A DNA stretch of 64,000 bases from Nitrospira sp. (lineage in GTDB: Bacteria; Nitrospirota; Nitrospiria; Nitrospirales; Nitrospiraceae): contig JAWOMO010000022.1 in the NCBI GenBank assembly GCA_033852435.1, positions 91,448-155,447 on the forward strand, in the 5' to 3' direction. The translations under genes were made by a program, and so were the position numbers. Below are positions 23,402 to 60,727 of this stretch, in pieces; position 1 is the first letter of the stretch; the number at the start of each line of letters is the position of its first letter. The notes under the pieces are model-generated. The model made no database searches and was not told the DNA's origin. It saw only the letters and a list, made by a program, of their open reading frames with translations.

Positions 23402-24154
23402 ATGCGCCTGACGATTCTTGGTTCCGGCACGAACGTCCATCCGACGCGAGCGGCGGCCGGTTACATCGTGCGGACCGATCAGACCTTGCTGCTCGACTTC
23501 GGACCCCGAACACTCATGAATCTGATGCGGACCGGCGTGAATCGCCATCGTATCGAGTACATTCTGTTCTCGCATTACCACAGCGACCATTTCGCCGACT
23601 TCATTCCTTTCTTTTTCGATGCGGTATTCTATTCGAACTATATCGGGCATAGACCCGATCTCACCCTCATCGGACCACGAGGAACCACACGGCTCTTCCG
23701 CACCCTTATAGCCACACTGCCGGGGTTCAAGAAGGCCCGCTTCAAGAGCCGTTTCAGAGAGGTGTCCGATCGAGCATTTCATATCGGGAAGACGTCCATT
23801 GTCCCGCGGACTGTCACCCACAGTCCCGGCCTGCATTGCATCGGCTATCGCATCGAGTACGGCGGGCGGGCCATCGCCTATTCCGGCGATGCGCAGTACT
23901 GCCACAATCTGGTGCCGCTTTGCGGTGACGTCGATCTTGCCGTGCTGGATTGCTCGTTCCCGGCAAACAAGCCGGGCCCTGGACATCTGCATGCCGGTGA
24001 ATGCGGGCAAGTGGCAGCGGAGGCAGGAGTCGGCCGCCTGGTACTCTCGCATTTCTATCCGATTGCGGAACGGTACAACGTGAAGGAGCAGGCAGGAGAA
24101 TCGTTCGGCGGACCGATCACGCTTGCCGGCGATCGAATGACGATCAAAATCTGA
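23402..24154 (+). CDS. MBL-fold metallo-hydrolase (RNase Z-like)
   Basis: It has the HYHSDH (HxHxDH) motif, downstream GD/H ligands, and a length of ~250 aa. Confidence 0.8.
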   Translation: MRLTILGSGTNVHPTRAAAGYIVRTDQTLLLDFGPRTLMNLMRTGVNRHRIEYILFSHYHSDHFADFIPFFFDAVFYSNYIGHRPDLTLIGPRGTTRLFRTLIATLPGFKKARFKSRFREVSDRAFHIGKTSIVPRTVTHSPGLHCIGYRIEYGGRAIAYSGDAQYCHNLVPLCGDVDLAVLDCSFPANKPGPGHLHAGECGQVAAEAGVGRLVLSHFYPIAERYNVKEQAGESFGGPITLAGDRMTIKI

Positions 24155-24180
24155 TACCAGAAGACAAGAGGCCCATCAAC

Positions 24181-24376
24181 GCAGGATGCTCAAAATCGAC
24201 CCGGGCAAGGCCGCAGCGAGCGAGAAGACGAGGAGGTACATACCAAGCTTTGCTTGAGCCGCTCGCTTCGATCACATGCGAGCGGAGAGGTACTTTCCCT
24301 CAACTGACCACTTCCATACGTTGAGTCTTTGAACGATGCGAGAACGCAGCCCGAGGCGATTTTCGGCATCCTGCTA
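24181..24376. repeat. Structured ~196-nt palindromic repeat, copy A (candidate ncRNA / REP- or MITE-like element)
   Basis: It aligns end to end with 38005-38201 in the same orientation. A 57-nt core has only 2 differences. It has ~26-nt terminal inverted repeats and internal hairpins CAAGC-TTT-GCTTG and CCGCTCGC-11nt-GCGAGCGG. No conserved ORF is present. Confidence 0.85.
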
Positions 24377-25261
24377 GAGGCCGCCTTCTTTGATTTCACA
24401 CCCTAAGATCTCCATAAACTTCGTCAGGCGGGCTTTCTTGAGAGGATCGTCGAGCTTGGCATAGATCGCGAGAAGATTCTTGATCATGCGCGAGAGAATG
24501 GCGCGCACCGGGCTGTGCTGGAGATATTTCTCGTCAAATCCGTAGCCCGCTTCGGTGAGAAAGCGCTGGCAGTTCTTCTCCGTCAGCAAGGCCCCGCCGT
24601 TGAAGCAATCGACGAAAATCTTGTACCGATCCGATTCATACTTGACGAGGAAATGCCCCGGCATGCCGATGCCATGCACCGGAAGACGCAGCCGCTTGCC
24701 GATCAGCAGGTAGACCACCGACAGGCTGATCGGAATCCCGGTCCGCCGGTCGATGACGCGATTGATGTAGCTGTTCTCAACCTCGTAATAATTCTTCGTG
24801 TTGCCCTTAAACCCCTGCTCCGTAAACAGATAGCGATTGAGCGTCTTGACCGTTTCCTCGCCGGATGCCCGAGGACCGATGCGATCCTGCACCTCCTGCG
24901 CCATTTCGTCCAGCAGGCGCGTATAGATCGATACGTCCAGTGAAGGATAGGCGTAGCGGGCGATCAGAAACGCCCCCTGCTCCAAATCCATGCTCTCGTC
25001 CGGCATGGCCGCCAACTGAATGAACTCGTCTTCCAGCTTGCCGCCACGGATCTCCTCGAGTACCGAGGCGATCCGCTCCGCCATTTCTGGTTGTTCGATC
25101 TCGGCTTCTTGCAGGAGGGGCACGGCTGAGGGACCGAATTCAATCAGCTTGTCGCTGATTGTCTGGACGATTTTTTCGTCCTCATCGGCGAGCAATCGGA
25201 TGAGGGCCCGAATTTGACTCTCGTTCACGACCATGATGAGCCTCCTGGACAACCCAGGCAA
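24374..25261 (-). CDS. SirB1/YchA-like transglutaminase-like protein with an N-terminal HEAT-like region
   Basis: NRYLFTEQGFKGNTKNYYEVENSYINRVIDRRTGIPISLSVVYLLIGKRLRLPVHGIGMPGHFLV is the UPF0162/SirB1 signature as I recall it. Confidence 0.6.
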   Translation of the reverse strand: MPGLSRRLIMVVNESQIRALIRLLADEDEKIVQTISDKLIEFGPSAVPLLQEAEIEQPEMAERIASVLEEIRGGKLEDEFIQLAAMPDESMDLEQGAFLIARYAYPSLDVSIYTRLLDEMAQEVQDRIGPRASGEETVKTLNRYLFTEQGFKGNTKNYYEVENSYINRVIDRRTGIPISLSVVYLLIGKRLRLPVHGIGMPGHFLVKYESDRYKIFVDCFNGGALLTEKNCQRFLTEAGYGFDEKYLQHSPVRAILSRMIKNLLAIYAKLDDPLKKARLTKFMEILGCEIKEGGL

Positions 25262-26041
25262 TTACCCCATCGCCCGTCGGAACGCTTTAGCGCCGCCATA
25301 GAGACAGAGCGCGTCGAAGATCACCATCACGACCACCACCATCCCGACATGCGGAAGCGCCTCACTCCAGCTGCTGAGGATCAGCGGCCGCACCGCGTCG
25401 ATGGCCCAGGTCATTGGATTGAACCTTGCCAAGAAACTCATCCACCCCGGCATGGCCGCCAACGGCACCAGTGCCGAACTTAAGAATATCATCGGGAGGG
25501 AGAGAAAGCCCAGCACGGAGAAGAAATCGCCATGGCTTTTCACGGAGAAGGCCATCGCCATGGAGATCGCCGTAAGCCCCACCCCGAACATCATGCCGAT
25601 GAGCAGAATCGTCGCAATGCCGAGCAATCCGGTGGTAGGCTGGACACCGAACAGAAAGGCCACGCCGAGAATCACCAGCACTTGGAGGGAGGTAATCGTC
25701 ATCACGAAGATGAAACGACTCAGGATCACCGAGCTCCGATGGATCGGCGTCGACATTAACCGTTCCAAGAATCCGTTCTCTTTATCGAAGAGCAGATCGA
25801 CCCCCCCGGCGAGTCCATTATTCAGCACCGTCATCACAACCACACCGGCCGCCAGGAAGCTGATGTAGTTCGGGGCCTGTGTTACCTGCGCATCCGCCGC
25901 ACGCTGGAACAGATTGCCGAAGAAGATCAGCCAGAACAGCATTGGCTGGACGAGCGTGAACAGCATACTGAACTTCTCGCGGCTCAGCCGCAGCACCCAT
26001 CGCATCGTCAATGCACTGATTTCCTGCCAGTACTGCGCCAC
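25262..26041 (-). CDS. ABC-2 type transporter permease
   Basis: It has six TM segments, a length of ~260 aa, and a position directly downstream of the ABC ATPase. Confidence 0.8.
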   Translation of the reverse strand: MAQYWQEISALTMRWVLRLSREKFSMLFTLVQPMLFWLIFFGNLFQRAADAQVTQAPNYISFLAAGVVVMTVLNNGLAGGVDLLFDKENGFLERLMSTPIHRSSVILSRFIFVMTITSLQVLVILGVAFLFGVQPTTGLLGIATILLIGMMFGVGLTAISMAMAFSVKSHGDFFSVLGFLSLPMIFLSSALVPLAAMPGWMSFLARFNPMTWAIDAVRPLILSSWSEALPHVGMVVVVMVIFDALCLYGGAKAFRRAMG

Positions 26042-37101: not shown

Positions 37102-37964
37102 AGATTGTTCATGCCCCTAAGGCCATGACGGCCTGGAGCGAACGGCTCAGGCGGGAAGGTGTGACGATCGGCTTCGTGCCGACGATGGGCGCACTGCATG
37201 ACGGCCACCGTTCGCTGATTCGAGCGGCTCGACTGCAATGCGACGCCCTCGTGGTCAGCATTTTTGTAAACCCAACACAATTTGCGCCTACGGAGGATCT
37301 GGCCAACTATCCGAGGCCCATTGCGAATGATCGCGCGCTCTGCCGCGCGGAAGGCGTGGATATCTGCTTCGAACCCAGCGCATCAGCGATGTATCCAAAA
37401 GGATTTCAAACTACGGTCGCTGTTCCGGGCATCGCGAAACGCTGGGAGGGTGAATCGCGCCCCCATCACTTCGGCGGCGTGGCAACGGTCGTCACGAAGC
37501 TGTTCGGCATGGTCCGGCCGCATGTCGCGCTGTTTGGGCAGAAGGACTATCAGCAGGCGGCGCTCGTCCAACAGCTTGTTCAAGACTTGAATCTTGGCGT
37601 GAGGATTCAGGTGAGGCCGACGGTGAGAGAACGCGACGGCTTAGCCATGAGTTCTCGCAATGTGTACCTCTCACCGGAAGAACGGATGCTCGCGCCGACT
37701 TTCTATCGGGCCTTGCAGGCCGGCCGGCAGGCGATTGAAGCTGGAAAGACCGATGGAGATTCGGTGCGTCAGGTCATGCGGCAGGTGATCAGTAAAGAAC
37801 CGATGATCCAGATCGATTACCTGGCCGTCTGCGATGGCGCAACGCTGGAACCGCTGACCACGATCGAACGGCAAGCGGTCCTGCTTGGCGCCATCCGGAT
37901 CGGTTCAGTCCGCCTGATCGATAATCTGGTCGTAAAGGTCGGAGGGAAAAAGGGCGGTCGTTGA
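37098..37964 (+). CDS. panC: Pantoate--beta-alanine ligase
   Basis: It has GFVPTMGALHDGH, VVSIFVNPTQF, FGQKDYQQ and MSSRN motifs. It overlaps folK by 4 nt. Confidence 0.95.
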   Translation: MKIVHAPKAMTAWSERLRREGVTIGFVPTMGALHDGHRSLIRAARLQCDALVVSIFVNPTQFAPTEDLANYPRPIANDRALCRAEGVDICFEPSASAMYPKGFQTTVAVPGIAKRWEGESRPHHFGGVATVVTKLFGMVRPHVALFGQKDYQQAALVQQLVQDLNLGVRIQVRPTVRERDGLAMSSRNVYLSPEERMLAPTFYRALQAGRQAIEAGKTDGDSVRQVMRQVISKEPMIQIDYLAVCDGATLEPLTTIERQAVLLGAIRIGSVRLIDNLVVKVGGKKGGR

Positions 37965-38004
37965 ACGGCTCCATAGCGGGGTTGGAGAAATAGAAGAACG
38001 TCCA

Positions 38005-38201
38005 GCAGGATACTCAAAAAGGCCGTCCGGCAAGGCCGCAACAAGCGAAGGGGCGAGGAGGTACATACCAAGCTTCGCTTGGGCCGCTCGCTTCGATCAC
38101 ATGCGAGCGGATAGTTACTTTGCCTCAAGCTGGATTCTCGGTACGTTGAGCCTCTGAGCGCAGTGAGAACGACGCCGGCGGACTTTTTCAGCATCCTGCT
38201 A
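38005..38201. repeat. Structured ~197-nt palindromic repeat, copy B
   Basis: It is homologous to 24181-24376 over its full length. It keeps the same internal hairpins, and its terminal helix is maintained by compensatory substitutions relative to copy A. Confidence 0.85.
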
Positions 38202-38708
38202 AGCGGTTGAGACAGACTGGTGCCCCTGGCTCACGAGCAGGCCAAGGACCACTTGGCTGAGACGTCGCTGGTCGGGCAACGGCACTTCGAGAAAGCGCAC
38301 CCCCACCGAGGAGGGACGGACGGAACAGACCATCGCCGTTTCGATCCGAATGGCCTCGTCCTCCTGCTTGGGCTTCAAAACCAGTCCAAGAAATGTCCCG
38401 CGCGGTAACCCTGTCGTCTGCAGCGTACAGCCGTCCATCGAAATATCGGTGATGCGGTTCGTCGCTTGCATCCGATTGTCGGCGAGAAACTGCGCCTCGA
38501 TTGATGTAGGAAGCCGCTTATATTGGCGGCGATCGAAGGCCTGCATGCTTTGGCGATCCCCTCGGTGGAAGGCGCGGAACTTATTCATGCAGAGCTGGCA
38601 ACGAAAGGGGAAGAGGTTCAACTGATTCATGACGCGCTCCATCGTGCCATCCTGATAGGTCACGCGCACGAACGGTGTGCCGCAATTCGGACAGTGGACT
38701 GTCTTCAT
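38199..38708 (-). CDS. Zinc-ribbon + PilZ-domain protein
   Basis: It has CPNCG...CQLC at the N-terminus, then RRQYKRLP ... DISMDGC, the PilZ RxxxR / D.S.GG-like signature. Confidence 0.7.
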   Translation of the reverse strand: MKTVHCPNCGTPFVRVTYQDGTMERVMNQLNLFPFRCQLCMNKFRAFHRGDRQSMQAFDRRQYKRLPTSIEAQFLADNRMQATNRITDISMDGCTLQTTGLPRGTFLGLVLKPKQEDEAIRIETAMVCSVRPSSVGVRFLEVPLPDQRRLSQVVLGLLVSQGHQSVSTA

Positions 38709-47471: not shown

Positions 47472-47783
47472 ATGCAACGAGCTTTATGGCTGTTCGTCGG
47501 TTCTCTCATGTTCACCGCCTGTGGCGGGAGCAACCCCTATCTTGAACAATCATTGAAGCCGGCTGAATTGCAGGGTAAAGACAAGGCCTGGTTCGAAAAG
47601 AACTGGGGTTCTCCAAGCGGCAAGGCTCCCAGATTTTTCGGTGGTGAGACCTGGACGTATTACCGGATCGCCGGAGGAAAATCCGGTCCTCCTCTATTCA
47701 ATTTCACCCCCAATCAGTGCGAAATCACGTTGAAGTTCGATAAGGAAGAAAAGCTCTCCGACTATAGCTACTCCGGCTGCTAA
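47472..47783 (+). CDS. Small lipoprotein, hypothetical
   Basis: It has a signal peptide with the lipobox MFTACG and is 103 aa. Confidence 0.6.
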   Translation: MQRALWLFVGSLMFTACGGSNPYLEQSLKPAELQGKDKAWFEKNWGSPSGKAPRFFGGETWTYYRIAGGKSGPPLFNFTPNQCEITLKFDKEEKLSDYSYSGC

Positions 47784-60451: not shown

Positions 60452-60727
60452 ACAGCGAAGCGATTCGCTCTTGAGATCACCTGCGATCGTTGCAAAACTC
60501 CCAGAAAGTTAAACGCCCACGAAATCCATTGGCCAGGCCACAGGAGGCCTAATAGAACCCGGGAGGATGGTAATAATATCCGCCAGCAAGGCCACAGCAA
60601 GCGAAAGGTCTAGCTGGCTCAATACCCACATTGAAGCCTTGAGAGTTGCGTGAATGCTGCTGGCGGGTTTTGGCAACCTTCTCAAGTTGTGCGGCATGGT
60701 ACTTCCGCATAAGGACGAAAGCAACGC

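Follow-up and report, generated by a model that had tools for sequence, protein, structure and literature searches.

A Nitrospira MITE family often located at stop codons, with a rod-like hairpin body whose pairing appears to be kept by selection

We report a family of small mobile elements, classified here as MITEs, from the genomes of Nitrospira, two copies of which (A and B) lie in the window, by which we mean the whole stretch of 64,000 nucleotides that was analysed. Copy B is best read as an old copy of a Nitrospira/Nitrospiraceae-specific MITE, in which the pairing of a long rod has been selected and whose most likely role is that of a hairpin at the 3' end of transcripts; to this reading as a whole we assign a probability of roughly 0.6. 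A preliminary description of the window had compared the two copies and proposed that pairing, and not sequence, is kept in their closing helix, which it took to favour selection on a structure over a pair of inverted repeats matched for binding by a transposase.

An intact element measures ~270-310 bp and is made up of a left part of 76 nt, X, and a hairpin body of ~190 nt, Y. The left terminal repeat, CAGGCTGCGGAAAAACTC, stands at the start of X and the right one, CAGGATGCTGAAAAAGTCC in reverse complement, at the end of Y, the end-repeat motif of the element being CAGGMTGCKGAAAAA. Because the right repeat occurs once more inside Y, inverted, the whole body folds into a long rod consisting, from its outer end, of a stem P1, a C·C mismatch, an A5/T5 tract, a stem P2 and inner stems, with an optional core of ~95 nt at its apex. 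Copies A and B share a 100-nt stretch at 89% identity and align at 83% identity over ~250 nt, the repeat being ~195 nt long, and in both the outer stem P1 is followed by the C·C mismatch, the A-tract/T-tract and the G+C-rich stem P2. In both the X part has been lost and there is no left duplication; copy A retains ~14 nt of the end of X and copy B a degenerate left repeat. The features of the window are listed below, with the strand in brackets where one applies.

38006..38198 (+): hairpin body of copy B, the Y part of the MITE, from the first to the last base of the outer helix; nhmmer match 38006-38198
38006..38014 (+): 5' strand of P1 of copy B, CAGGATACT, the internal inverted copy of the right terminal repeat ('DR2')
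38190..38198 (+): 3' strand of P1 of copy B, AGCATCCTG, the tip of the right terminal inverted repeat, with an A38012·C38192 mismatch
38016..38031 (+): 5' strand of P2 of copy B, AAAAAGGCCGTCCGGC, the A5 tract and G+C-rich stem, with C38015 opposite C38189
38174..38188 (+): 3' strand of P2 of copy B, GCCGGCGGACTTTTT, the G+C-rich stem followed by T5
38055..38127 (+): conserved core of copy B, an optional module, with a GAGGAGG...CCTC closing stem
38069-38081 (+): hairpin in the core of copy B, CAAGC-TTC-GCTTG
38084-38110 (+): hairpin in the core of copy B, CCGCTCGC-TTCGATCACAT-GCGAGCGG
38199..38202: CTAA, the YTAR target and right copy of the duplication at copy B; L118 has CTAA on both sides at the same site
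38199-38201: CTA, the TAG stop codon of a PilZ-domain gene, 38199-38708 (- strand)
37977..38005 (+): probable left (X) remnant of copy B, inferred from a degenerate left repeat, CGGGGTTGGAGAAAT, the spacer being mostly deleted
24182..24373 (+): hairpin body (Y part) of copy A, with its core at 24230-24301
24374..24377: CTAG, the YTAR site adjoining copy A, in which CTA is the TAG stop of a transglutaminase-like gene, 24374-25261 (- strand)
24152..24181 (+): sequence flanking copy A, in which TGATACCAGAAGAC is a short relic of the end of X (compare GCTGATACCAGAATAAC, as read in L014 and L065); the TGA stop of a metallo-beta-lactamase-fold gene, 23402-24154, lies within it
60573..60675 (+): third copy, degenerate and reduced to its inner arms (CCGCCAGCAAGGCCACAGCAAGCGAAAGG ... 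GCTGCTGGCGGGTTTTGGC), without outer helix and without core
47780..47783: empty CTAA target, the stop codon of the ORF 47472-47783; the related L049 is filled
25262..25264: empty site, the stop (TTA on the + strand) of an ABC-2 permease gene, 25262-26041; the related L053 is filled

Three further pairs of short repeats, direct or inverted, were returned by a repeat finder with a match of 73-75% (9684-9715/24565-24596, 4553-4586/43555-43588 and 33221-33250/62695-62724) and resemble chance matches.

In the closing helix of copy A, CAGGATGCT (24182-24190) pairs with GGCATCCTG (24365-24373) and is followed by the C·C mismatch 24191/24364 and then by AAAATCG (24192-24198) opposite CGATTTT (24357-24363). 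The two strands of P1 in copy B pair likewise, and are followed by the same mismatch at 38015/38189 and by AAAAAG opposite CTTTTT. Direct reading of these letters upholds the preliminary description on the two adjacent pairs that are T-A and C-G in copy A and A-T and G-C in copy B, and on the wobble T24190·G24365 of copy A that becomes the pair T38014-A38190 in copy B; the A38012·C38192 mismatch in P1 of copy B is absent from that account. The inner arms, described there as different in sequence yet complementary, are paired in the minimum-free-energy folds of both copies. When the two copies are folded, on either strand, they beat all 200 of 200 shuffles (z from -4.0 to -6.2). In the closing helix copy B agrees with the family consensus, from which copy A departs: its T-A pair is found at that position in 6 of 89 distinct copies and its C-G pair more rarely still.

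Further copies were collected by means of an exact 19-mer from the core, GAGGAGGTACATACCAAGC, in a scan that covered one genome per species and returned at least 117 loci (designated here by L numbers) in at least ~63 assemblies, with up to 8 sampled loci from one genome. Among the matches listed, all but two belong to Nitrospira/Nitrospiraceae, including N. moscoviensis NSP M-1 and the complete genome of Nitrospira sp. NFB02. The two exceptions, L088 and L114 (Mycoplasmoides alvi and a Bacteroidaceae MAG), were set aside as chance matches in which the remainder of the element is absent, and two is about the number expected for 19 bases in 596 Gb. Searched against Rfam at gathering scores, the whole window matched no family, and for 37950-38260 there was still no match when E was allowed to reach 10.

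Pairing was assessed in an alignment (A2) of 38 copies of typical length, with the structure given by RNAalifold; other counts on the helix draw on up to 96 further copies. The whole structure comprises 44 pairs, 21 of which have changed on both sides, and 95.6% of its cells are paired as against 89.2% in shuffles and 34-41% when the partner is slid. For the terminal helix the corresponding figures are 12 of 19 pairs changed on both sides and 95.1% of cells paired, against 87.6% in shuffles and 36-52% with a slid partner. None of 500 shuffles attains the observed value, for the whole structure on any of five measures and for the terminal helix on any measure. Thus in further copies the pairing exceeds that of shuffled controls and the changes in the arms are largely compensatory, and the statement that it is pairing and not sequence that is kept in the closing helix holds for the family. 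Among 16 orthologous pairs of elements we count 10 compensated double changes where ~1-2 are expected; of the single changes, 28 abolish a pair altogether and 15 leave an A·C. The identity of the element in these pairs is close to that of the mostly coding flanks and lies above it in about half of them, and the structural constraint on the element is loose.

The mobility of the element is seen most directly at its ends. In 23 of 93 copies the end motif recurs in direct orientation ~76 nt upstream of P1 (CAGGCTGCGGAAAAACTC), and of the first 15 positions of the terminal repeats in these full-length copies, 12 agree in the majority. Fourteen of the 23 are flanked by a perfect 4-bp target duplication of the form YTAR (CTAG, TTAG, CTAA or CTAT), and two more by one with a single mismatch; TTAA is also among the duplications of the family. 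Filled and empty sites can be compared between close relatives, whose flanks are 85-93% identical and whose empty sites are clean: L027 reads CTAT-[X+Y]-CTAT where L022, with flanks 93% identical, has a single CTAT, and L116 reads TTAA-[Y+X]-TGAA where L042 has an empty TTAA, at a TAA stop codon. The window itself is empty at 47780-47783 and after the stop of the ABC-2 permease gene, the two sites filled in L049 and L053. At the panC-PilZ site of copy B, L118, the closest metagenome relative (panC 77% identical in protein, the best metagenome match to panC, the exact product of which is not on record), has X and a Y without core, flanked on each side by CTAA and lying at the same PilZ stop; L128 and L129 keep a remnant there, and L119, L122 and L124 are empty. 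The unit X+Y, with its terminal repeats, 4-bp YTAR duplication and empty sites, therefore identifies the element as a MITE: it is short and non-coding, bears terminal inverted repeats, duplicates its target and occurs in dispersed copies at sites found both filled and empty. There is no ORF conserved between copies, and the variable region changes in length by numbers of nucleotides not divisible by three. The compensating pairs of the arms and these out-of-frame length changes led us to rule out a small conserved ORF or a read-through peptide.

Insertion takes place at YTAR with duplication of 4 bp, which suggests a staggered cut made by a DDE-type transposase acting in trans. A TA duplication of the IS630/Tc1-mariner kind was ruled out, as all four bases are duplicated and vary together (CTAG, TTAG, CTAA, CTAT); a model in which only TA is duplicated would need coincident end bases in every copy. 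In ~0.9 Mb of 8-kb loci we found no pair of inverted repeats 0.7-3 kb apart that could represent a parent or autonomous element, nor a transposase gene between matching repeats.

About 75% of the copies, A and B included, show no recognisable left repeat or left duplication. A few cases suggest that such copies arose by decay of X: following insertion, X and the left duplication would decay while Y persists, and copies A and B would be in this state. A search with a profile upstream of the X-less copies recovers remnants of X in only 3-6 of 80, and the same 4-mer occurs within 100 nt upstream in 5 of 19, against 1-2 in controls, a weak signal; no duplication directly flanks these copies, where there is only a trivial G/C extension of the helix. 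The 5' flank of X-less copies is often rich in pyrimidines (TTTCTTTCTTG-like) directly upstream of the outer helix, as in L049 (4369-4402), L039, L044, L050, L081 and L115, and this stretch may be a second type of left end. We also observe, at 7725-7812 of L042, a solo X without Y, composed of a motif like the left repeat, the hairpin of the spacer and 11 nt from the start of the internal repeat, which occupies a site that is empty in L116.

The right ends of the elements have a consistent relationship to neighbouring genes. Most copies have, immediately after their 3' end ...CATCCTG, one of the three stop codons in reverse complement (CTA, TCA or TTA); such a stop comes right after CATCCTG in 55 of 97 copies, with at least 50 open codons leading up to it in 37 of 97, and an ORF on the opposite strand ends at the 3' end of the element in ~45 of 77 cases. 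Since TAG and TAA lie inside YTAR and the 4-bp duplication rebuilds the stop, insertion at a stop codon is harmless to the protein, and it is because of this rebuilding that copies A and B start exactly at the stops of the transglutaminase-like and PilZ genes. In L053 the element lies directly after the stop of the ABC-2 permease gene, and the C-terminus (...AFRRAMG and stop) is the same as that encoded by the gene at the empty site of the window. We ruled out that the element supplies the stop or acts as a SECIS/PYLIS-type recoding signal: the stop and the C-terminus are native and the genes that the element abuts are unrelated. Stop codons make up ~21% of the non-coding YTAR sites in the loci, or ~10% per end, whereas the right end is found at a stop in 38-57%; of the 23 full-length copies, 14 have a stop adjoining the right end and 4 have one adjoining the left. 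The excess at the right end shows that target preference alone is insufficient, and selection on the position and orientation of insertion is likely.

The strands of the closing helix are the right terminal repeat and its internal inverted copy in the 5' arm, and not the left terminal repeat. This distinction can be made in the 23 full-length copies, where left and right repeats differ at position 5 (C versus A, equal in 2) and at position 9 (G versus T, equal in 4), whereas the internal arm agrees with the right repeat at these positions in 21 and in all 23 copies, respectively, and also tracks its rare variants (L019, L072). As the true left repeat differs at the covarying positions, binding of a transposase to both ends cannot explain the covariation. 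The contrast drawn at the outset between a selected structure and a transposon thus stands in one part, in that the helix does not consist of two matched transposase sites, and falls in the other, since the element, with its empty sites and its 4-bp YTAR duplications, is a transposon-derived MITE whose terminal inverted repeat supplies the 3' arm of the helix.

This last fact lends itself to an interpretation without function, in which the pairing is a by-product of three neutral processes: descent from a master copy whose internal repeat and right terminal repeat were duplicates, correction of quasi-palindromes by hairpin-templated template switching, and conversion of whole units between dispersed repeats. 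The main variants (A-T/C-G at position 5 and C-G/T-A at position 8) do resemble a few subfamilies and not many events, many single changes break pairs, and the occurrence of full and coreless Y at one locus in related genomes (L067/L070 and the window/L118) fits conversion, which it makes likely between copies. Template-switch correction should, however, erase mismatches, yet the C·C is retained in 83 of 89 distinct copies, at a position where the internal arm has C and both true terminal repeats have G, and a G·A site also persists. Nor do symmetric neutral processes predict that G·T should outnumber A·C by ~2:1, as it does in three separate counts (61 versus 26 in the outer helix, ~41 versus 19 in the inner stems and 31 versus 15 in the 16 orthologous pairs), and at loci where X and the left duplication decay, Y persists and remains highly identical. 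A wholly neutral origin of the pairing is in our judgement rather unlikely, if a serious candidate, and the room left for hairpin-templated correction and conversion as routes to matched arms is reduced. Retention of the C·C, the excess of G·T over A·C and the compensated changes in orthologues instead favour a fold in a single strand, and the statistics above show that the pairing of the rod is kept by selection on such a fold, which seems to matter as far as the aligned copies can tell.

A single-stranded fold could be one of DNA as well as of RNA. The hairpin might be extruded as single-stranded or cruciform DNA during replication or transposition and be recognised by a transposase or host factor, in the manner of IS200/IS605 ends, REP/RAYT or integron attC sites, and this would accommodate the covariation of P1, which lies beyond the T5 tract, the conserved C·C, which resembles the unpaired bases that mark folded DNA sites, and the excess of G·T, which is tolerated in DNA hairpins too. 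Against it, the 4-bp duplication implies a staggered double-strand cut and not the duplication-free insertion of HUH enzymes, which makes a single-strand DNA mechanism of the IS200/IS605 or attC type unlikely; the left end that is used in transposition lies outside the hairpin; the fold persists long after the left end is lost; and no gene for an HUH transposase or integrase was seen beside the copies, the flanks in the window being housekeeping genes. We hold a DNA-level role to be highly improbable. An element of the IS200/IS605 or REP/RAYT (HUH) type had first been suggested by the one-sided CTA, and is excluded by the duplicated 4-mer and the single-copy empty sites. An integron attC site was also ruled out, as the copies are dispersed among housekeeping genes and have the ends CAGG...CCTG and not RYYYAAC/GTTRRRY.

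A fold in RNA could in turn belong to a self-contained structured RNA gene carried by the transposon, with a transcript of the + strand that starts perhaps from X and with the core as its active part. The core contains a GAGGAGG stretch that pairs with CCUCC and a hairpin with a T-loop-like loop, TTCRAUC; it folds well (z -4.45), units of it stand alone downstream of a tRNA-Met gene and in the same sense, the wobble bias lies on the + strand, and its loops are very conserved, in agreement with the sequence-conserved central core of the preliminary description, although this conservation is inflated because an exact 19-mer of the core served as the probe for copies. It is at the same time dispensable: coreless 'mini' copies of ~122 nt are found at no fewer than 8 loci and at the same types of site, including that of copy B in L118, so that the core is an optional insert of ~95 nt in an apical GTAC/GTAC hairpin. 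No promoter was detected, and Rfam has no match even at E = 10. We think an independent RNA gene very unlikely. A scan of viral contigs with two core loops found nothing.

Several variants of the core and of its surroundings were observed. In L111 (243-385) two core-only units lie in tandem directly downstream of tRNA-Met (384-460, - strand) and in the same sense; their second hairpins show compensatory changes (GCCGCCCCC/GGGGGCGG and CCGCCGCG/CGCGGCGG), and the loop of this hairpin, TTCGATCAAAT or TTCAATCAAAT, starts like a tRNA T-loop (TTCRA). Another core stands alone at 28-135 of L007. A C-rich module of 44 nt, GTTCTCACCCGCCCACCCC followed by the hairpin GGCGCGCC-AAGA-CGCGCC and TTTCC, is inserted in the 5' arm of ~42 copies (for example L001 180-240, L027 3440-3490, L046 and L127 3385-3560), and it also occurs inverted in the 3' arm (L013, L046, L101) and at the apex (L098); L127 has two inverted modules between its arms and lacks the core. 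Matches to this module in the loci lie inside elements in 43 of 47 cases, and its own hairpin shows compensatory changes. An extra hairpin of ~33 nt (CCTGCCTGCGCGAAGCGCTTCGGCGGAGGCAGG) is found between GCGA and GAAC of the 3' arm in L005, L008, L093 and L107, as a nested palindromic insert. Three variants stand within 2.6 kb in N. moscoviensis NSP M-1 (L098 2556-5057; CP011801 ~1,618,556-1,621,057), namely a full copy, a copy in which the C-rich module replaces the core at the apex, and a coreless mini copy. The family is a mosaic of optional modules, the core and the C-rich module among them.

The role that we consider most likely, with modest confidence and on the strength of sequence comparison, is that of a hairpin at the 3' end of transcripts, either terminator-like or protecting the end of the mRNA. 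The fold would form in transcripts that cross the element and would act there as a 3'-end hairpin. On both strands the G+C-rich P2 is followed by T5, so that the element looks like a two-way terminator; its 'loop', however, is ~140 nt long and P1 extends past the T tract, and if transcription stopped at T5 then P1 would be absent from the RNA, which counts against this reading. The wobble bias favours the + strand of the window, whereas most copies are read into by a gene on the - strand. Simple consensus scans for promoters and canonical terminators reported none at either copy in the window. A more specific version, which we regard as decidedly unlikely, is that the hairpin body is a mobile device for gene 3' ends, placed at stops in a preferred orientation, and that the fold or core acts on the upstream message or on the terminating ribosome, in termination, decay, stalling or rescue. 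Were it so, a transposon would be spreading a structured regulatory RNA module across Nitrospira genomes.

Comparison with known repeats places the element in a familiar class. Correia elements (CREE/NEMIS) of Neisseria are small, non-coding and multi-copy, have terminal inverted repeats and a short TA-containing target duplication, lie at gene ends and form hairpins in transcripts that affect termination and RNA processing. The Nitrospira element shares the size class, the repeats, a duplication, the position at gene ends and the hairpin; it differs in being unrelated in sequence and from another phylum, in a 4-bp YTAR duplication in place of TA, in a helix formed by an internal copy of one terminal repeat and not by two termini, and in its mosaic modules. 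ERIC/IRU of enterobacteria and Yersinia are imperfect palindromes of ~127 bp in transcribed intergenic regions, with arms that are complementary between copies, and are held to influence the stability of mRNA as hairpins in it; the present element is unrelated to them in sequence and host, larger and modular, and has a clear 4-bp duplication and empty sites. REP/BIME and REPIN-RAYT repeats are intergenic palindromes often found just downstream of stop codons, and an E. coli REP near a stop codon reportedly affects translation of the upstream gene, but REPs are 20-40 nt long with a GTAG-type motif, no target duplication and a RAYT (HUH) gene, none of which is seen here. Like attC sites, in which unpaired bases of the folded strand are functionally important, the element conserves structure over sequence, but it has no R/L core sites, cassette arrays or nearby integrase and does have a conserved core, a target duplication and dispersed copies.

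The target preference of IS5 is YTAR. The ends of the Nitrospira element, CAGGCTG...GAAAA, recall what we take to be those of the IS5 family, and the 4-bp YTAR duplication is a likeness to IS5, from which the element differs in that no transposase gene or parent element was found for it in the loci. Direct repeats of 4 bp are listed for IS5/IS5 group elements, and also for the IS1182 family and the IS3/IS407 group (PMC3281130). Because the 4-bp duplication is shared with IS1182 and IS3/IS407, assignment to the IS5 family is only a lead.

In the papers that the literature search covered, nothing relevant to a MITE or repeat of Nitrospira appeared, and none describes this element. What is new is thus the Nitrospira family, the hairpin-forming bacterial MITE being a known kind (compare Correia and ERIC); less usual are the internal copy of a terminal repeat that forms the rod, the optional conserved core and the use of stop codons as targets with a bias in orientation. 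Nitrospira are key nitrite oxidisers and complete ammonia oxidisers whose non-coding DNA is almost uncharted, and the family, present in at least ~63 species-level genomes including that of the cultured N. moscoviensis, marks many of their gene ends. It offers a clear case of a transposon that uses the stop codon as a safe landing site, and a warning for annotation, in that such a repeat can pass for a novel structured RNA. If the fold acts on transcripts, the family would provide a natural experiment in which dozens of genes per genome exist with or without the same 3' module.
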